A DNA stretch of 64,000 nucleotides, taken from assembly GCA_020725175.1 (NCBI GenBank), contig DYFM01000005.1, positions 1,855 through 65,854 of the forward strand, in the 5' to 3' direction. Position numbers and translations under genes: made by a program. Position 1 is the stretch's first letter, and every line of letters starts with the position of its first letter. Below are positions 10,678 through 48,921 of this stretch, one piece after another. This stretch comes from Candidatus Paceibacter sp. (GTDB lineage: Bacteria; Patescibacteriota; Patescibacteriia; Magasanikbacterales; UBA922). Under the pieces are notes generated by a model, which worked only from the letters and a program-made list of their open reading frames with translations, searched no databases and was not told the DNA's origin.

Positions 10678-11087
10678 TCGGAAGTAGCTCAGTGGTAGAG
10701 CAGTTGGCTGTATATCACGGAATGCGTGTTTTATTACGCATACGACTAGCAGCTCTCGATAGGAATATCGGGATGAAGAACAAGGTGAATTGCTGGAAAC
10801 CCTATCAGGTTATGCTGAGGGTAATCAGCAGCCAAGCCCTATATCTCTACGGAGATCAGTAGGGAAGGTTCAGAGACTATCCTGTAATGGGAGTAGGCTG
10901 GTACATGTATCAGTCGAAGCGCCTTGCACCCCATCGCTTTCGAGCAATCGAAATTTGGCGAGGGTGAAGATATAGTCCACGCTTTCCTGACTATATTGTC
11001 GGGACGATAAACCGTTTCGGTTGTCGCTGGAAACAGGAGATATTACGTGTAACCAATTGGTCGTGGGTTCGAATCCCACCTTCCGAG
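10678..11087 (+). tRNA. tRNA-Asn (anticodon GTT) interrupted by a group I intron; exons 10678-10711 and 11050-11087
   Basis: The exons fold as acceptor TCGGAAG/CTTCCGA with discriminator G, D-arm GCTC AGTGGTA GAGC, anticodon stem GTTGG/CCAAT, and T-arm GTGGG TTCGAAT CCCAC. The anticodon loop becomes CT GTT AA when the exons are joined after U35. U1-A72 with G73 fits Asn identity; Thr-UGU is the alternative if the splice site is two nt upstream. Confidence 0.65.
10712..11049 (+). ncRNA. Group I self-splicing intron in the tRNA-Asn anticodon loop, ~338 nt, no endonuclease ORF
   Basis: The conserved core elements are present: P (aattgctggaaa), Q (aatcagcagc), R (gttcagagacta) and S (aagatatagtcc). 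The 5' exon ends in U and the intron ends in G. Confidence 0.7.
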
Positions 11088-28318: not shown

Positions 28319-28388
28319 AGTTATCCACATATTGAATGAAATAGTAAGAGGAGTATAATCGACTCAGTAATTCTTAAGCGCCTTTTAT

Positions 28389-32665: not shown

Positions 32666-33895
32666 ATGCTTTTAAATCTAAAAGAATGTAAGATTTGCTT
32701 TCCAATATTCCAAAAACACCCCAATCTAGTCTATCTAGATTCAGCTTCCAGTACCCAAACACCACAAACTGTTCTTGATGCAGTGAACGATTACTATATA
32801 AACTACCGAGCAAATATTCATCGAGGATTATATGATTTGAGTGGTACTGCAACACAGAAATATGAGGAAGCCAGAAAAACAGTAGGAAAGTTTATCAGCG
32901 CAAGTTCGAAAGAAATTGTCTTCACATCCGGAACAACTCATGGTCTAAATCTACTCGCCTCAGGAGTACAAAATACTCTTCAGCCGGGTGATAATATTGT
33001 GTTGACTGAAATGGAACATCATGCGAATTTAATTCCGTGGCAAAAAATTGCAAAGAAGAAGGGGATGGAGCTACGATTTATACCAATGAACAGGGAACAG
33101 AGGACAGGGAACAGTTACGAATTGGGTGTTTCTGACATTGAAAATTTGATTGATGAAAAGACGAAAATCGTATCTTTTACTCTGGTATCAAATACGCTCG
33201 GAACAATTAATCCGGCGGAAGAAATTATTGCTCGAGCAAAAAAAATTGGTGCAATCACAATTGTCGACGCAGCACAGGCAATGGCGCACATGCCGATTGA
33301 TGTAAAGATATTAGACTGCGATTTTATGGTATTTTCCGGACATAAAATGTATGGTCCAACCGGAATTGGTGTTTTATACGGAAAAAAAGAAAGGTTGGAA
33401 GCACTTGAACCATTTTTTTATGGCGGAGACATGGTCCGTTCTGTATCGTATGAAGATGCAACTTGGGCAGATGTACCGGAAAAATTTGAAGGGGGTACGC
33501 CAAATATTGCGGGTGCGATTGGACTTGGTGCTGCGGTTGAATTTATTCAGTCTACTGGGTTTGATAAAATACAGAATCACGAAACACAATTAACTAATAA
33601 ACTAATAAACCAATTAAATAGTATACCTGATGCTCGGATAATTGGATTGAATTCAGAGGAAAAAAGAATTGGAGTAGTCTCATTTTTACTAAAAGACATT
33701 CATCCTCACGATGTGGCGGAAATATTGAATCGCGACCAGGTATGTGTCCGTACTGGGCATCACTGCACTATGCCACTTATGAAGAAACTTGGTTTACCAG
33801 GAACAGTACGTGCTTCAGTTGGGATTTACAATACGGAAGATGATATTGATAAACTTTTTGCGTCTTTAGCGAGAGTTATGGCTGTTTTTAAATAG
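32666..33895 (+). CDS. sufS: Cysteine desulfurase SufS (class V aminotransferase)
   Basis: YLDSASSTQ start region, PLP-binding SGHK, and the active-site Cys motif RTGHHC. I placed the start at the internal ATG (MLLNLKE). The exact coordinate is +/-1 nt because my manual count disagrees by one with the ORF track in this region. Confidence 0.8.
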   Translation: MLLNLKECKICFPIFQKHPNLVYLDSASSTQTPQTVLDAVNDYYINYRANIHRGLYDLSGTATQKYEEARKTVGKFISASSKEIVFTSGTTHGLNLLASGVQNTLQPGDNIVLTEMEHHANLIPWQKIAKKKGMELRFIPMNREQRTGNSYELGVSDIENLIDEKTKIVSFTLVSNTLGTINPAEEIIARAKKIGAITIVDAAQAMAHMPIDVKILDCDFMVFSGHKMYGPTGIGVLYGKKERLEALEPFFYGGDMVRSVSYEDATWADVPEKFEGGTPNIAGAIGLGAAVEFIQSTGFDKIQNHETQLTNKLINQLNSIPDARIIGLNSEEKRIGVVSFLLKDIHPHDVAEILNRDQVCVRTGHHCTMPLMKKLGLPGTVRASVGIYNTEDDIDKLFASLARVMAVFK

Positions 33896-33897
33896 AC

Positions 33898-33968
33898 CGC
33901 GGATTTAACGGATGGAACGAATTAAAACGGATCCGTTCCAATCGGTCTAATCTGTTAAATCTGCGGTC
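33898..33968. repeat. Palindromic element gaccgcggatttaacggat ... atctgttaaatctgcggtc; AACGGAT-core family
   Basis: Long inverted repeat between sufS and sufU. Confidence 0.5.
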
Positions 33969-33983
33969 TATTAAGCATAATCT

Positions 33984-43371: not shown

Positions 43372-44616
43372 ATGAAACGTTTCTTCGTAATACTTCTCAT
43401 TATTAGCATCGGCGCCGCGAGTCAGCCGTTTTTTGCGTATACCACGACACCCGCTACCGGAGGTACACAAGAGGAAATTAACTCGCTTAATAAAGAAATA
43501 GAAGCTAAAAAAGCCAAGATAAAGCAAATTGAAGAGACTATTTCTGCTTACAAAAAGAAGATTGAAGAAAAACGCACAGAAGCAGTTTCTATTTCCAACC
43601 AACTTGCCATTCTTGATAATCGAATAGCTCAGGTAGAACTTGATATTGAAGCAACTACCGCTACTCTTGAGGCAATTGAACTTGAGATCAAGCAACTACA
43701 GCTTTCTATCAACGAAAAACAACAGATTGTAGATAAACAAAAAGACATGCTCGGCGAGTTAGTTCGACTCCTTCACTACCAACAATCAAAGAAAACCATT
43801 GAAGTGTTGGCAGCATACGACAGTTTTTCAGAATTTTATACCACAGTTCAACACCTAGAAAATCTGGAGCGCAATCTAGGAAAACAAGCAAAAATGATTC
43901 GCCTTGCCAAAGAAGAATTGGAAACAAAACGAACCGAACAAGAAAAACGTCGTGAGTCATACAAAGAACTAACAGCTAAGCTTGAAAAGCAAAAAGAAGA
44001 CCTTGATCACCGAATTGACGGAAAAGAAGTGCTTCTAGCTGCCGCCCAATCATCCGAGTTGGAATATAAGACTGTTGTTAATAGTCTTAAAAAGCAATAC
44101 CAGGCAGTTGAAGGGGAAATTTCCACTATTGAGCGGCAAGTACGACAAAAACTTGAATCAGAAAAGAAAATCACCAAAGAACCGGAATCCCCAACCGGTG
44201 AGGTCATTCTTTCCTGGCCGGTAAATAGCCGGTATGTTACCGCCTATTTTTACGATCCATCTTACCCATATCGAAACGTCTTTGAACATAATGCCATCGA
44301 TATCGCAGTTGGGCAGGGGACAACGGTACGTGCGGCAGCCAGTGGCTATGTAGCTAGAGCCAAACGTTGTACTACCGCATCATGCTATGCCTATGTTATG
44401 ATTGTGCATTCTGGTGGCATTTCTACTGTTTATGGTCATTTGAGTCGAATTGATGTAGCTGAAGATCAGTTTGTAACTCGCGGTGATGTGATCGGTCTTT
44501 CCGGTGCCAGACCGGGTACTATTGGTGCCGGCCCTTTCACTACCGGTCCACATCTTCATTTTGAAACTCGTAAAAATGGTATTCCGGTGAATCCGTTGAA
44601 TTATTTAGAAAAATAG
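43372..44616 (+). CDS. M23-family peptidoglycan metalloendopeptidase with an N-terminal coiled coil (EnvC-like)
   Basis: Signal peptide, long coiled coil, and a C-terminal M23 domain (HLHFETRKNG, H.H). Confidence 0.8.
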   Translation: MKRFFVILLIISIGAASQPFFAYTTTPATGGTQEEINSLNKEIEAKKAKIKQIEETISAYKKKIEEKRTEAVSISNQLAILDNRIAQVELDIEATTATLEAIELEIKQLQLSINEKQQIVDKQKDMLGELVRLLHYQQSKKTIEVLAAYDSFSEFYTTVQHLENLERNLGKQAKMIRLAKEELETKRTEQEKRRESYKELTAKLEKQKEDLDHRIDGKEVLLAAAQSSELEYKTVVNSLKKQYQAVEGEISTIERQVRQKLESEKKITKEPESPTGEVILSWPVNSRYVTAYFYDPSYPYRNVFEHNAIDIAVGQGTTVRAAASGYVARAKRCTTASCYAYVMIVHSGGISTVYGHLSRIDVAEDQFVTRGDVIGLSGARPGTIGAGPFTTGPHLHFETRKNGIPVNPLNYLEK

Positions 44617-44664
44617 TAGCTCTCACAAACAACAGACTATTATTAGTCATGTTGAACAAGTAAA

Positions 44665-44742
44665 CAGACCGCGAATGAAACGGATTAAACAAAATGCAAC
44701 GAATTCGTTTTTATCTATCTAATCTGTTTCATTCGCGGTCTA
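44665..44742. repeat. Palindromic element agaccgcgaatgaaacggat ... atctgtttcattcgcggtct; AACGGAT-core family
   Basis: A 20-bp near-perfect inverted repeat around a ~38-bp core that contains AACGAATTCGTT. Confidence 0.5.
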
Positions 44743-44781
44743 TTTTGCTTCATAGCTATATAACTAAAAAATTATCTAAAA

Positions 44782-44806
44782 CTACACCAATTTGTGTAGT
44801 TTTTTC
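44782..44806 (+). terminator. Rho-independent terminator after the M23 peptidase gene
   Basis: ctacaccaatttgtgtagttttttc. Confidence 0.55.
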
Positions 44807-44824
44807 TTTGTGGATAACCCACCT

Positions 44825-44853
44825 TTGACAAGAGAACAAATGTTCTCTATACT
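44825..44853 (+). promoter_or_regulatory. Near-consensus sigma-70 promoter (TTGACA-17-TATACT) with an embedded LexA/Cheo-type SOS box
   Basis: The 17-bp spacer is the palindrome AGAGAACAAATGTTCTCT, which contains GAAC-N4-GTTC. It is about 160 bp upstream of the LexA-like gene. Confidence 0.55.
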
Positions 44854-44896
44854 ACAGACATCTTCTACCGCGGGAGGAGGAGAGAGGAGTATGTCT

Positions 44897-44982
44897 GAAC
44901 TTACGAATTGAGTACGAACATACGAAGTAAAATTATCGTTTTGTTCGTAGTTCGTACGTTCGTATTTACTGTTCGTAAGTTC
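44897..44982. repeat. Long imperfect palindrome rich in TACGAA/TTCGTA words in the lexA leader
   Basis: The outer arms gaacttacgaa (44897-44907) and ttcgtaagttc (44972-44982) are exact reverse complements, and the inner arms pair as tacgaac.tacgaa. Confidence 0.5.
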
Positions 44983-45014
44983 GAATACATATTGAATTTT
45001 AAACTAAATATAAT

Positions 45015-45593
45015 ATGACAGCTGACCTATATAACCAGCGTAAAGAAGAGTTGGTCCAATATTACAAAAAATACAAACAACTCCCAACCTACGATGAATT
45101 GGTTGAGTTGTTTCATCTGCGTTCCAAAGGATCACTACACAAATACATTCAAAAATTTATTGATGATGAACTGATTGGAAAAAGTGATACTGGCAAACTT
45201 ATTCCAACAACAAAATTGTACGGACTGAGGGTACTTGGCTCTGTACAAGCCGGGTTCCCAACCGCCGCCGAAGAAGAAGATGTAGATACCATGAGTCTTG
45301 ATGAGTACCTTATTGGCAATCCGCAAGCTAGTTTCATGCTTACTGTTTCCGGAGACTCGATGATTGACGCCGGAATCATGGAAGGAGACATGGTGATTGT
45401 GGATCGAGGGAGAGTGCCAAAAAGTGGTGATATCGTTGTTGCCGAAGTCGATCATGACTGGACTCTCAAATACTTTATCAAACGTGGTAGCACTCTGTTT
45501 CTAAGAGCTGCCAATAAAAAATACCCAGACATTCATCCACAAGAAGAACTCAAAATTGGAGGGGTAGTCACAAGCGTCATTCGCAAATACTAA
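45015..45593 (+). CDS. lexA: LexA-like repressor (winged-helix N-domain plus S24 peptidase domain)
   Basis: VSGDSM (catalytic Ser) and a downstream Lys in IKRG, a GD.VVAEV beta-strand pattern, and an N-terminal DNA-binding-like domain. 192 aa is LexA-sized rather than UmuD-sized. Confidence 0.7.
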   Translation: MTADLYNQRKEELVQYYKKYKQLPTYDELVELFHLRSKGSLHKYIQKFIDDELIGKSDTGKLIPTTKLYGLRVLGSVQAGFPTAAEEEDVDTMSLDEYLIGNPQASFMLTVSGDSMIDAGIMEGDMVIVDRGRVPKSGDIVVAEVDHDWTLKYFIKRGSTLFLRAANKKYPDIHPQEELKIGGVVTSVIRKY

Positions 45594-45688
45594 CCAACTT
45601 CTTAGAAAAAAAAGAAATCTACCTATTTTTTATAGCTCATTTTTTCGACCTCAAATAACAAAATAAACCATCTCTAACACCTACACAT

Positions 45689-47014
45689 ATGAAACACACC
45701 ACCCACAATCACCGCATGATTTTACATGTTGACGCTGATGCTTTTTTTGCTAGCTGTACCCAAGCCACTCATGTAACGTATCAAGGCAAGCCCTTGGTAA
45801 CCGGTCGAGATAGGGGGATGGTAATAGCGGTAAGTTATGAAGCAAAAGCTCGTGGAGTGCGACGCGGTATGTTGATCAGTGAGGCAAAAAAAATCTGTCC
45901 AGAGCTTATTGCGGTAGAAAGTGATTACGAAACGTACAGCCTTTTTTCCAGACGTTTGTTTGCTATTTTACGTCGATACACCTCGGAGGTAGAGGAGTAT
46001 AGTGTTGATGAAGCATTTCTAGATATTACTGGACTACGCAAACCACTCAAAATGAGTTATGAAAAAATAGCAAAAGATATTCAAAAAACTATCAAACAAG
46101 AACTCAACATCACTGTCTCGGTTGGTCTTGCACCTACCAAAGTACTGGCAAAAGTGGCCTCAAACAAAAACAAACCATACGGATTTGTGAAAATCAGCAA
46201 CTTTTCTATTGAAAAATATCTAAAAAGTTTACCAGTACATGAAATTTGGGGAGTAGGTAATAATACCGCCAGTTATATGAACAAACTGGGAATTTTTACC
46301 GCCCTTGACTTTGTTCGCATATCACCTGAATCTGTCATATATAATTTCACCAAACCACACCAAGAAATTTGGCGTGAGTTGCAAGGAGAGTTGGTCTATC
46401 CGGTTATTACCGAAGAAAAAACCAGTTACGCCTCTATATCAAAAACTCGCACTTTTAGCCCAGCAAGTAGCAATAAAACCACTGTATACGCCGAACTCAT
46501 TCGCAATTTAGAAGGGGCTTGTAGTAAAGCACGCTTCCATGGTCTAGTTGCCAAACGCATTACTATCTTCTTAAAAACACAACAATTTACCACTGTCGCT
46601 CTTGAAGCTTGCCTGACTCGCGCTTCTGCCTATCCAAAAGATATTACTGCTATTGCACACCAGCTGTTCGACTCACTTTACAAGAATACGGTACAGTACC
46701 GAGCTACCGGTATTGTACTATCGGATTTACAAGAAAATACCTCTATCCAACAATCTCTTTTTGAATCTCCGGTGGAGTTGCAACGTCTTCAGCATGTATA
46801 CGATGCAGTTGACAATCTTACCAGAAAATTTGGCTCAAAAACCATTCATCTGGCTGCCAGCATGAAACCAAAAGCCACACCATTATCACCTGTAAAGACT
46901 GTTCGTGAAATGAAAGAAGAAAAAGAACTAGCTTTTTCTGAATGGCTAAAAAATGGCGGTATTTTAGGCAATAAACACTTGAACATTCCGCAATTATTTG
47001 GTACGATGGGGTAG
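45689..47014 (+). CDS. Y-family translesion DNA polymerase (DinB/UmuC-like)
   Basis: ILHVDADAFFASC, SVDEAFLDITG, and thumb/little-finger domains; 441 aa. Confidence 0.8.
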   Translation: MKHTTHNHRMILHVDADAFFASCTQATHVTYQGKPLVTGRDRGMVIAVSYEAKARGVRRGMLISEAKKICPELIAVESDYETYSLFSRRLFAILRRYTSEVEEYSVDEAFLDITGLRKPLKMSYEKIAKDIQKTIKQELNITVSVGLAPTKVLAKVASNKNKPYGFVKISNFSIEKYLKSLPVHEIWGVGNNTASYMNKLGIFTALDFVRISPESVIYNFTKPHQEIWRELQGELVYPVITEEKTSYASISKTRTFSPASSNKTTVYAELIRNLEGACSKARFHGLVAKRITIFLKTQQFTTVALEACLTRASAYPKDITAIAHQLFDSLYKNTVQYRATGIVLSDLQENTSIQQSLFESPVELQRLQHVYDAVDNLTRKFGSKTIHLAASMKPKATPLSPVKTVREMKEEKELAFSEWLKNGGILGNKHLNIPQLFGTMG

Positions 47015-47035
47015 TAAAAAGATATTTTATATCCT

Positions 47036-47572
47036 ATGAACCCCTTTTCCAATAATATCATCTTCTACGATTCAGAATTTACGTTTCTCGATCCACGAAA
47101 AGGGGAGTTGCTTTCTATAGGACTGGTGAAGTACACCGGTGAAGAACTGTATGTGGAGTTTGAATATGAAGGAGAGATGGATCCGTGGGTAGTGGAACAT
47201 GTAATTCCACACCTCCATGGGCCAAGATACTCAAAATCAATAGCCAAAGAGCTGATCAGAGATTTCATTGGACCGTCAAAAAATGAAAAAGAAAAACCAT
47301 TTCTTGTTTCATACGTGAATCAATTCGATTCAGTTTTTTGGTACGACTTGTTTGATTCACCAACAGACCATCCGGTATTTCGTACGCCGATAGATTTTGC
47401 ATCCATCTTGTTTGGGTATGGGTATCATCCAAACAGTCTAGGACGTCACGATTTTTGGAAACAGTATGGGATAGAAGGGTTACAGTATGAGGATCGGGAT
47501 CACAATGCTCTTGAAGATGCAAAAATTCTACGAGAGGTATATATACAATTTTACAAAGAACAAGACACATAA
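47036..47572 (+). CDS. DnaQ-like DEDDh 3'-5' exonuclease
   Basis: Exo I YDSEFT, Exo II in the NQFDSVFW region, Exo III HNALEDA. Confidence 0.6.
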   Translation: MNPFSNNIIFYDSEFTFLDPRKGELLSIGLVKYTGEELYVEFEYEGEMDPWVVEHVIPHLHGPRYSKSIAKELIRDFIGPSKNEKEKPFLVSYVNQFDSVFWYDLFDSPTDHPVFRTPIDFASILFGYGYHPNSLGRHDFWKQYGIEGLQYEDRDHNALEDAKILREVYIQFYKEQDT

Positions 47573-47858
47573 ACCCAAACATAAACCATAGGTGTAAAAC
47601 CCATCTTATTACATCCAAAAAAAATTGGTTATATGTCGTACAATATAATTATAGTATATTGTATACGGTATAGACATTACAGGTACAAATGTAAATTGAT
47701 ACATAAGAATCTTATCGCAATCTAGCTAGTTAGAAGTAGATGAAATTGGATACAAAAAACATTTAAAGAAAGCGGAAAATATACTGTAAGCAATCATGTA
47801 TCAACAAATCACTAATTCTATAAAAATAACCCACTCTGTACATTCGCTTTACATATAT

Positions 47859-47888
47859 TGTGCGAATATAAATGTTATATTATAGTGG
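47859..47888. promoter_or_regulatory. Candidate dif-like recombination site upstream of the Xer-like recombinase
   Basis: GTGCGAATATAAATGTTATATTATAGTG resembles the Xer arm / 6-bp spacer / arm layout of E. coli dif (GGTGCGCATAATGTATATTATGTTAAAT). A flanking palindrome acattcgc/gcgaatat is also present. Confidence 0.3.
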
Positions 47889-47958
47889 ATAGTATTGATC
47901 AGTTAACCAGAAACTTCTTATACCCTCCTCTCTCTAATTTCTCTTAAAGTACTCTAAT

Positions 47959-48921
47959 ATGATGCACAATTCGGACAAGCCGATTATAAAACACATTCCG
48001 AACTTTCTAGATTACTGTGAGGTTGAAAAAGGTTTGCGGGATAACACACAAAAAAATTACTCTCGATACCTCAATGTATTCGAAAAATGGCTCACTCACA
48101 CAGGAGAAACTACTAAACTCCCCCACCAACTCACAGCAGAAGATGTATGGAACTATCGCTTGTTTTTAGCAAGAAGATATCAAACAAAAAAAAAGAAAAC
48201 ACTTTCAAAAAAGTCACAAAATTATTACCTAATTGCCTTAAGATCACTACTTGATTATTTTACCGATCGGGACATTAATTCATTACCTGCGAGTAAAATC
48301 AAGTTAGCGAAAGATACTCATTCTAACAGTGTAAAATTTTTAACTCTGGAACAGGTTGAACGTTTGCTGAGGGTGCCAAAAGTTGCTACAAAAGTAGGAC
48401 TACGTGATAGAGCTATCATGGAAACATTATTTTCTACAGGGCTACGAGTATCAGAATTGGTATCGTTAAATCGTGAACAAATACACTTTAGAGATCCTGA
48501 TGGACTTGAACTAACAATCCAAGGAAAAGGCGGGTCTATTAGAACTGTCTACTTCTCTCCTAGAGCATTGTACTGGGTCAAAAAGTATCTGGAGACAAGA
48601 CAAAATGATATGGAACCAGCCCTATTTATAAATTATCAAACAAAAAATGAGGAGGAACGACGTCTTAATCAGCGTTCCGTACAGTCAAATATCAAAAAAT
48701 ATTCAAGATTGGCAGGAATACCAATTTCGGTAACACCTCATGTACTAAGACATTCTTACGCAACCGACCTACTTGTTCAGGGAGTAGATTTACGTACTGT
48801 ACAAGAATTTTTAGGGCATAAAAATGTTGCAACCACCCAAATATATACCCACATAACAAGTAAACGACTTAAGGAAATTCACAGTAAGTTTCATGGCGGA
48901 AATAAATTAGACAAAAAATAA
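47959..48921 (+). CDS. Tyrosine site-specific recombinase (Xer/integrase family)
   Basis: The C-terminal catalytic region carries R ... HVLRHSYATDLL ... GH ... TTQIYTH, giving the R-H-R-Y active-site residues. An N-terminal SAM-like domain is also present. Confidence 0.8.
   Translation: MMHNSDKPIIKHIPNFLDYCEVEKGLRDNTQKNYSRYLNVFEKWLTHTGETTKLPHQLTAEDVWNYRLFLARRYQTKKKKTLSKKSQNYYLIALRSLLDYFTDRDINSLPASKIKLAKDTHSNSVKFLTLEQVERLLRVPKVATKVGLRDRAIMETLFSTGLRVSELVSLNREQIHFRDPDGLELTIQGKGGSIRTVYFSPRALYWVKKYLETRQNDMEPALFINYQTKNEEERRLNQRSVQSNIKKYSRLAGIPISVTPHVLRHSYATDLLVQGVDLRTVQEFLGHKNVATTQIYTHITSKRLKEIHSKFHGGNKLDKK

Follow-up and report, generated by a model that had tools for sequence, protein, structure and literature searches.

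Do a LexA-like repressor, a translesion polymerase, and a proofreading-type exonuclease that are encoded one after another make up a single SOS module? The question is raised by a 64,000-nt stretch of the Candidatus Paceibacter sp. contig DYFM01000005.1 (hereafter, the window), whose region 44665-47572 carries a lexA-like gene, a gene for a Y-family DNA polymerase (polY), and a gene for a DEDDh exonuclease (exo), with a long palindromic leader upstream. An initial annotation of this region viewed the three genes as a self-contained damage-inducible module with an uncommon pairing of a polymerase and its dedicated exonuclease. The reading that we consider probable is a different one: an autoregulated lexA-polY operon, a housekeeping exonuclease gene as its neighbor, and a passenger repeat in the leader.

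The proposed mechanism draws on homology, family knowledge, and the conserved operator. LexA dimers would bind the GAAC-N4-GTTC site in the promoter spacer and block RNA polymerase; upon DNA damage, RecA-stimulated self-cleavage of LexA at Ala79-Gly80 would free the promoter, and LexA and the DinB-type translesion polymerase would then be made together. In one clade of Magasanikbacteria, the lexA-polY pair lies between the M23 and exo genes of a SpoU-gltX-M23-exo string, and in the genome studied here, exo probably came to be read from the lexA promoter through this rearrangement. A 100-bp palindromic repeat would have entered the lexA leader in the ancestor that this species shares with its closest known relative. 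This repeat appears to be a passenger there and not a LexA operator, and its likely effect is a very stable hairpin, predicted near the 5' end of the mRNA.

For comparison, we used a set of 80 loci from species-representative genomes, retrieved by alignment of exonuclease homologues; nearly all of them come from Patescibacteria, and many are labelled Candidatus Magasanikbacteria. The window itself derives from a patescibacterial genome of the Candidatus Magasanikbacteria type. The organisms are uncultured.

The lexA-polY operon and its promoter

As judged from alignments and a structural model, the first gene encodes a full LexA protein with a DNA-binding N-domain, in agreement with the initial annotation. 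Its residues 73 to 185 match the Peptidase_S24 domain (Pfam PF00717) with 99.8 bits, and the LexA model TIGR00498 covers residues 19 to 191 with 108.8 bits, compared to a cutoff of 110.95. The protein aligns along its full length with the LexA proteins of T. maritima (PDB 3k2z, residues 16 to 195) and E. coli (residues 25 to 197). The Ala79-Gly80 cleavage site (VQA79-G80FP) and the dyad of Ser115 (GDSM) and Lys152 (TLKYF) are invariant in 28 homologues, several of which are named LexA by their sources. The winged-helix N-domain spans residues ~1 to 65. Pfam LexA_DNA_bind by itself finds no match in this N-domain, whose AlphaFold2 model consists of helices at residues 3 to 20, 26 to 32, and 39 to 50 and strands at residues 54 to 56 and 62 to 64, with predicted local distance difference test (pLDDT) values of 81 to 87. 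Foldseek searches with the model rank full-length LexA and LexA-DNA structures highest in the PDB, with ~197 aligned columns. A protein that is UmuD-like only was also considered and was ruled out by the N-terminal winged helix seen in the alignment, in the AlphaFold2 model, and in the Foldseek matches.

The second gene product was initially assigned to the DinB/UmuC type and appears, by sequence, to be a DinB/Pol IV-type Y-family polymerase of a divergent lineage. It combines the IMS (PF00817, 164.8 bits) and IMS_C (PF11799, 58.8 bits) domains and carries the catalytic motifs DADAFF (residues 15 to 20, with D15-A-D17) and SVDEAF (residues 105 to 110, with D107-E108). The best Pol IV models score 232 to 237 bits, with cutoffs of 256 to 399, and UmuC scores lower, at 174 bits; in the PDB, Pol IV 7yll (4.7e-47) and E. 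coli DinB come out on top. The C-terminal tail of this protein, IPQLFGTMG, may be a clamp-binding motif.

The near-consensus promoter proposed for these genes, TTGACA-17-TATACT, was recovered as the top promoter-like site across positions 44400 to 48000 (coordinates of this and other elements are listed in Table 1). The palindrome in its spacer, AGAGAACAAATGTTCTC, includes GAAC-N4-GTTC, the LexA motif of Firmicutes and Actinobacteria (PMC4951493). This motif has a single match in the window, versus ~1.1 expected by chance anywhere in it, and the match falls exactly in the promoter spacer. Nine orthologous loci (L001, L003, L005, L008, L009, L010, L012, L038, and L171) have the 16-mer GAGAACAAATGTTCTC in identical form 5' of lexA, with TATAAT or TATACT behind it, which argues that the arrangement of promoter and box is not due to chance; in all, 10 loci have GAAC-N4-GTTC in the spacer of the lexA promoter. 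Autoregulation of lexA via a Cheo-type box in its own promoter is therefore supported by sequence conservation. As candidates for additional LexA boxes, relaxed matches with up to 3 mismatches were tried and rejected (20 in the window versus 14.6 expected); there is no second GAAC-N4-GTTC in the window.

Upstream of the promoter, 7 nt from the -35 element, lies a perfect DnaA-box 9-mer, TTATCCACA. There are 35 perfect copies of this 9-mer in 896 kb of Patescibacteria loci, and 19 of these are located within 25 to 63 nt of a lexA SOS box, in loci that span both Magasanikbacteria lexA clades (L001 to L038). By this comparison, the perfect DnaA box is a conserved upstream element of lexA promoters, and its presence beside the LexA operator in two lexA clades suggests that replication-initiation control is linked to the SOS regulator in these very small genomes. 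One more TTATCCACA copy is found in the window at positions 28321-28329, 2 nt upstream of the -35 element of a gene for an NrdH-like glutaredoxin. The location of these boxes suggests that DnaA feeds into both the lexA and the nrd promoters.

The promoters of a clade with a stand-alone lexA (L013, L014, L016, L017, L020, L027, L031, and L033) contain two Cheo boxes: the spacer has CGAACGTACGTTCG, and GAACAAWCGTTCG immediately follows an AGGAGG tract. The leader of this clade has a GC-rich hairpin with compensatory changes (CCCGG/CCGGG versus CTCGG/CCGAG).

Gene order and the identity of the exonuclease

Gene order was compared by mapping the window proteins onto the retrieved loci and clustering the neighboring open reading frames (ORFs); 82 exo-bearing loci were counted, and locus L171 was added later. 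In Magasanikbacteria, the backbone consists of genes for a SpoU methyltransferase, gltX, an M23 peptidase, and exo, followed on the other strand by FtsQ-like, FemAB, and DegT genes. The lexA-polY pair is inserted between M23 and exo in 13 of the 82 loci (the window, L081, L001, L003, L005 to L010, L012, L037, and L038), with L171 as a later fourteenth case. Eight loci encode lexA alone, downstream of exo and on the opposite strand, and in ~26 loci M23 directly adjoins exo. In the remaining ones, which represent other classes of the Candidate Phyla Radiation, exo is found beside SecA, FtsH, ABC transporters, and other genes. Staskawiczbacteria show the order gltX-exo-xer (L057 and L058), and in L058 a lexA-polY pair is located 4 kb from exo. 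Wherever the contig holds DNA upstream of polY, lexA is directly 5' of it (14 of the 14 polY loci listed, and likewise L171); the contig of L037 ends before that DNA. In a neighbor-joining tree of M23 and exo that included 11 of the insertion loci, 9 of these fell into one clade and the loci with lexA downstream of exo into another. Since exo occurs mostly without polY and lexA precedes polY wherever the upstream DNA is available, this survey points to lexA-polY as the conserved functional unit, which is a known kind of SOS operon. The exonuclease gene, by the same comparison, looks like a housekeeping resident of the insertion site and not a dedicated partner of the polymerase.

The exonuclease, of the DEDDh 3'-5' type, is a single 178-aa domain without an epsilon-type C-terminal tail. 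The DEDDh residues D12, E14, D98, H156, and D161 are invariant in 29 sequences, and the RNase_T domain is recognized with 25.6 bits (cutoff, 24). The best family match, RNase AS (NF033638), reaches 34 bits, below the equivalog cutoff of 200, and aligns only with residues 10 to 113. In a PDB profile search, RNase AS (3e-9) ranks above the exonuclease domain of PolC (6e-7) and far above epsilon (0.016, a partial match), and Foldseek searches with the model (pLDDT, 88.7) put RNase AS first, followed by RNase T, interspersed DnaQ domains, and oligoribonuclease (Orn). The protein thus has the DEDDh motif and shows no specific relatedness to epsilon or PolC. These comparisons point to a general, RNase AS-like, housekeeping-type DEDDh exonuclease that is conserved in Patescibacteria. 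A dedicated DnaQ-like proofreader, as initially annotated, finds no backing here, because the nearest families are of the RNase AS, RNase T, and Orn types and no polymerase gene is adjacent across most Patescibacteria.

It thus seems improbable to us that lexA, polY, and exo make up a single mutagenesis or repair module under LexA control, with the DEDDh enzyme as a proofreader for the polymerase or as another kind of partner to it. The three genes are indeed co-oriented, as described initially and as borne out by their ORFs and domain matches; the gaps between them are 95 and 21 nt long, with no terminator in either; their order recurs in 13 loci; and predictions for Bacteroidetes include DnaQ-like exonucleases (COG0847) under SOS control (PMC8565304). 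However, a polymerase neighbor of exo is limited to these 13 of 82 loci and to particular clades, and the ancestral partner of exo is M23 or gltX, as in the gltX-exo-xer loci. None of the 82 loci has GAAC-N4-GTTC in the 250 nt upstream of exo, and in L001, L005, L007, and L008, long spacers of 247 to 365 nt part exo from the preceding gene. The protein itself is closest to exoribonucleases. In the genome analyzed here, the 21-nt gap after polY and the absence of a terminator suggest that exo has probably been put under the lexA promoter, is cotranscribed with polY, and is SOS inducible. A mobile-island origin, with lexA-polY as the cargo, the space between M23 and exo as the integration site, and the tyrosine recombinase encoded at 47959-48921 as the integrase, is in our estimate just as improbable. 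The segment between M23 and lexA does vary in content, with 0.7 to 2 kb of extra DNA in L001, L006, L008, L009, and L012, and the downstream gene does belong to the Phage_integrase family, but that gene is also syntenic with exo in loci that lack an intervening lexA-polY (L026, L057, and L058), with 54 to 55% identity in L057 and L058. Because it accompanies exo where no lexA-polY separates gltX or M23 from exo, the recombinase looks like a resident Xer-type enzyme. In addition, the insertion arrangement is largely monophyletic, and no flanking repeats were seen.

The long polY-exo spacers are GC-rich and apparently structured (L005, 5754-6000; L008, 5725-6000; L007, 1758-2100; L001, 5630-5994). 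Those of L005 and L008 have long-range complementary segments in common, and Rfam searches of the spacers of L005, L007, and L008 gave no match.

The leader palindrome and a dispersed repeat family

The initial annotation noted a TACGAA-rich palindrome in the lexA leader that was not explained by the single SOS box. The palindrome is real, its extent is wider than the 44897-44982 first given (~44890-44991), and its likely explanation is an inserted dispersed repeat. A left arm of TACGAA(C) units is separated by a loop (44927-44942) from a right arm of GTTCGTA units, and the ends, TGTCTGAAC...GAATACA, are each flanked by TA. As RNA, the element folds into one hairpin (-38.3 kcal/mol; z = -5.4). 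It stretches the distance from the SOS box to the ATG to 181 nt, compared to 48 to 59 nt in relatives, whose leaders overall are 29 to 59 nt long. Only one relative shares the TACGAA/GTTCGTA palindrome, namely, the closest one, L081 (81% identity for the exonuclease and 94% for LexA), where it begins ~10 nt after the -10 element and folds with z = -7.5. Locus L171 (LexA identity, 79%) shares the terminator, the DnaA-box-like element, and the promoter with its SOS box, but its leader of only 29 nt is an empty site. Behind what is the same promoter throughout, the leader is polymorphic for the element, which is present in two loci, the window and L081, and missing from L171 and 9 others. As only the window and L081 are filled and L171 is empty, the insertion can be dated to the common ancestor of two species. 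From this comparison, the leader palindrome appears to be a lineage-specific insertion of a dispersed repeat and not a part of the SOS design.

A purine tract, GGGAGGAGGAGAGAGGAG, occupies window positions 44872-44889, just upstream of the inserted repeat. In L171, a GGAGG Shine-Dalgarno sequence precedes the lexA ATG by 14 nt; the window has no Shine-Dalgarno sequence before the ATG at 45015. The insertion may have separated the ancestral ribosome-binding site from the lexA start codon. A leader peptide or attenuator was considered and rejected: the mini-ORF that starts with an ATG at 44891 (MSELTN, then a stop codon), behind a GGAGG-rich tract, is not found in L081, and the hairpin is not followed by a U-tract.

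When metagenomes were scanned for GTTCGTAGTTCGTANGTTCG, 73 contigs matched, ~69 of which contain extended arrays of the same heptamer. Their commonest architecture is a TACGAA(C) left arm, a short loop, and a GTTCGTA right arm, and the family ends are TGTRCGAAC...GTTCGYACA or CACCGAAGTACGAAC...GTTCGTACTTCGGTG. A profile hidden Markov model of 7 foreign copies, used with nhmmer, aligned full-length with window positions 44890-44988 (E = 7.5e-18) and with L081 (1.4e-23) and found nothing else in 890 kb of Patescibacteria loci. Since neither lexA nor polY is present in any of the 73 arm-bearing contigs, the heptamer arrays are unlikely to be SOS operators. In 9 copies, no compensatory change was seen at any of the 31 stem pairs, and such variation as there is breaks pairs, which argues that the sequence is conserved rather than the RNA fold; conservation of the heptamer most likely reflects recognition by a protein. 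Gene-less doublets were seen in 28 distinct versions with differing flanks, and L138 has two copies in consecutive intergenic gaps of one operon. A search of IMG/VR for a phage origin of the repeat gave no matches.

Some of these arms frame a gene. In L087, L092/L144, and L125, arms ~400 bp apart enclose an ORF of 133 to 137 aa (positions 2021-2422 in L092) that belongs to the GxxExxY family (PF13366 PDDEXK_3; TIGR04256), and the nearest homologues of the enclosed proteins are labelled Candidatus Magasanikbacteria. The same arms flank a GxxExxY gene in L157, L161, and L163; in L159 and L167, the gene is followed by a full palindrome; and variant heptamers are found in L165 (TACAGAA) and L167 (ATACGAAA). 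The GxxExxY gene is wedged between unrelated host genes, always co-oriented with them, such as LemA and M48, gatA, pilins, MacB/FtsX, epimerases, and glycosyltransferases. The gene-less arms of L135 are almost identical to the gene-carrying arms of L092, from the same metagenome, with 16 nt in place of the gene. When every ORF at most 2.5 kb away from the 73 arm sites was clustered, GxxExxY was the only gene family that recurred near arms across loci. The GxxExxY nuclease has no known function (PMC3424549), and we found almost no literature on it.

Three further observations concern these copies. Locus L170 is also among the Magasanikbacteria loci with a ~134-aa GxxExxY gene framed by heptamer arrays. 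In one metagenome project (L086 to L139; SDBV01 and SDBT01 contigs, GC content of 0.29 to 0.33), more than 20 contigs carry near-identical type-A copies, with the ends CCACCGAAT...TTCGGTGG within a larger inverted repeat (gtactttgttccaccg...); these resemble a composite repeat that is proliferating in a genome of low GC content. In L094 and L104, a solo 45-nt GTTCGTA arm at ~1278-1315 lies in a region that aligns with an Xer-like recombinase and may be an in-frame coding insertion.

Judging by these sequences, the heptamer-array family looks like the REPINs (doublets of repetitive extragenic palindromic [REP] sequences) that go with REP-associated tyrosine transposases (RAYTs), or like miniature inverted-repeat transposable elements (MITEs); it is possibly undescribed and is likely mobile. 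In such a system, the GxxExxY nuclease may recognize the heptamer arrays, arm-gene-arm units of ~500 bp may reside in operons, gene-less derivatives of ~100 bp may have been dispersed into intergenic regions and leaders, and the lexA-leader copy may remodel the 5' end of the mRNA for the SOS master regulator. GxxExxY is a large family, and heptamer framing together with gene-less derivatives is a selfish or mobile signature that would offer a candidate DNA substrate for this nuclease. The composite proposal, that Patescibacteria have an undescribed REPIN/RAYT-like or MITE-like system with a GxxExxY nuclease partner and also that the DnaA box couples lexA to DnaA and replication status, is put forward tentatively, with the chances somewhat against it.

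Two functional roles for the palindrome at lexA need to be weighed against its being a passenger. A cis-acting element of the lexA mRNA that has been kept by selection, e.g., as a stabilizing 5' hairpin, an RNase III site, or a translational modulator, is unlikely, even though the hairpin is very stable in both carrier species, whose exonucleases have diverged to 81% identity, and even though the L081 element starts near the expected transcription start. The element matches no Rfam family, the pair-breaking variation among the 9 family members is not what a maintained fold would leave, the hairpin lacks the U-tract of an intrinsic terminator, L081 has neither the mini-ORF nor the GGAGG-rich tract, and no other lexA-polY leader contains the palindrome. 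That the heptamers serve as extra LexA half-sites for cooperative, tighter repression of lexA-polY is very improbable, more so than any of the other alternatives considered here. The heptamers do contain the Cheo half-site CGAAC/GTTCG, with units spaced by 7 to 8 nt, near the half-site interval of the box; lexA promoters commonly have tandem LexA sites (PMC4951493); and the stand-alone lexA clade has two boxes. However, the palindrome includes no inverted GAAC-N4-GTTC pair, since the units of one arm repeat in direct orientation and the arms are at least 16 nt apart; the same arrays occur in the 73 contigs without lexA or polY and also flank GxxExxY genes; and they are not found in 10 other lexA-polY promoters.

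An autoregulated lexA-polY operon with a housekeeping neighbor and a passenger repeat thus remains the preferred reading, and several points weigh against it. LexA binding, induction, and transcript structure are all inferred. The exonuclease is only 25 to 27% identical to RNase AS and scores far under the NCBIfam cutoff, and the substrate of a DEDDh enzyme, RNA or DNA, cannot be assigned from sequence. In this genome, exo closely follows polY and is probably SOS inducible, and the lexA-polY-exo order persisted through a whole clade, so that some functional benefit is conceivable. The leader element was retained in two species and may have acquired a role in lexA expression; L081 apart, only this one copy is present in the window and 890 kb of related loci together. 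No recurrent transposase turned up in the 2.5-kb surroundings of the 73 arm sites. TA flanks are frequent, not universal, and TA is common in AT-rich DNA, so a target-site duplication is unproven. The empty lexA-leader site is too diverged to define the element junction, and no empty LemA-M48 site from which the ends could be defined is present among the loci of this survey.

Known systems and other features of the window

The closest counterpart of the lexA-polY unit is the Gram-positive-type SOS system (LexA/DinR and the Cheo box), which has the same autoregulated lexA with GAAC-N4-GTTC in its promoter, the same LexA architecture and catalytic residues, and a translesion polymerase as a core member of the regulon. 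Nothing essential differs; here, the box sits exactly in the -35/-10 spacer and is accompanied by a perfect DnaA box. Magasanikbacteria appear to keep a minimal LexA circuit of this type that drives a DinB-type polymerase, and there is little new in it as an SOS cassette. The lesson of the locus is that an exonuclease following a polymerase can look like a functional module from gene order alone, and that such a module may dissolve once synteny is surveyed. Operons of lexA and dinB were reportedly described in Geobacter sulfurreducens by Jara et al. in 2003. In Opitutus terrae, lexA is cotranscribed with mutagenic polymerases as lexA-imuA-imuB-dnaE2 (PMC4951493), and dinB and umuDC are core SOS genes across phyla (PMC8565304). 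As with lexA-imuA-imuB-dnaE2 and with umuDC operons, a repressor and a mutagenic polymerase share one LexA-repressed unit, whereas a single polymerase of the DinB type is encoded here, without ImuA, ImuB, DnaE2, or UmuD, and the unit is set within a housekeeping string. An SOS network of Patescibacteria has been published (Sanchez-Osuna, Barbe, and Erill 2017, Environ Microbiol 19:3465), according to its citations in PMC7739468 and PMC8565304.

The exonuclease shares the DEDDh fold and motifs and the single domain of ~170 aa with RNase AS (Rv2179c, PDB 4oke/6s0m; PF16473, Rv2179c-like), RNase T, Orn, and DnaQ domains. It differs from RNase AS in its low identity, in its score, and in forming a family conserved within Patescibacteria. 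For the leader repeat, the systems to compare are REP/REPIN elements with RAYT transposase genes and MITEs, such as the Correia elements of Neisseria. Like these, the heptamer family forms ~100-bp intergenic palindromes, often in operons, with strong hairpins when transcribed and frequent TA ends, and its gene-less doublets exist beside copies whose arms flank a small nuclease-type gene. In contrast to them, its arms are arrays of 4 to 5 heptamers (TACGAAC) and not a single GC-rich palindrome, the gene encodes a GxxExxY PD-(D/E)XK protein and not an HUH (RAYT) or DDE transposase, and its mobility is putative.

Table 1. Features of the lexA-polY-exo region and of arm-GxxExxY-arm units in other loci
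Feature	Sequence	Coordinates	Strand	Description
Terminator-like hairpin and T-run	Window	44778-44803	+	10-bp stem, then TTCTTTG; closes the gltX-DUF2164-M23 unit; cassette boundary
DnaA-box 9-mer, perfect	Window	44809-44817	-	TTATCCACA
lexA promoter	Window	44825-44853	+	TTGACA at 44825-44830, 17-nt spacer, TATACT at 44848-44853; 11 of 12 consensus positions
SOS (Cheo-type) box	Window	44831-44848	.	AGAGAACAAATGTTCTCT; core GAAC-N4-GTTC at 44834-44845; fills the spacer; predicted LexA operator
Heptamer-array palindrome	Window	~44890-44991	.	lexA 5' leader
lexA ORF	Window	45015-45593	+	192 aa; Peptidase_S24
polY ORF	Window	45689-47014	+	441 aa; IMS and IMS_C
exo ORF	Window	47036-47572	+	178 aa; RNase_T
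Arm-GxxExxY-arm unit	L087	7403-7869		
Arm-GxxExxY-arm unit	L092	1975-2468		
Arm-GxxExxY-arm unit	L125	925-1424		

Upstream of the cassette, the M23 peptidase gene ends at position 44616; the tyrosine recombinase gene (47959-48921) lies downstream of exo. The terminator-like hairpin is kept in L081, and an equivalent hairpin is found in L171. The region as initially delimited, from 44665 onward, also takes in this M23 terminator hairpin and an unrelated 84-nt palindrome, neither of which is a part of the cassette.

The 84-nt palindrome (44662-44745) directly follows the M23 stop codon, and a 75%-identical copy at 33889-33972 directly follows the stop codon of another gene. The two copies differ in a compensatory manner (GAATGAAAC/GTTTCATTC versus GGATTTAAC/GTTAAATCT, and AACGAATTCGTT versus AACGGATCCGTT). 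This palindrome is not present in L081 or L171, and it appears to represent another repeat family, REP-like or of the terminator kind and unrelated to the first. For it, neither an Rfam E-value scan of positions 44500-45200 nor a gathering-threshold scan of the window gave a family match; around the lexA leader, the former returned only subthreshold noise from eukaryotic microRNAs, and the latter returned nothing. Elsewhere in the window, a DUF3800-II RNA was matched with 54.5 bits at 2288-2361 on the minus strand, and a group I intron was matched with 76 bits at 10722-10999 on the plus strand, beside an apparent tRNA 3' half that was not called by ARAGORN; the latter site is probably an intron-split tRNA gene.

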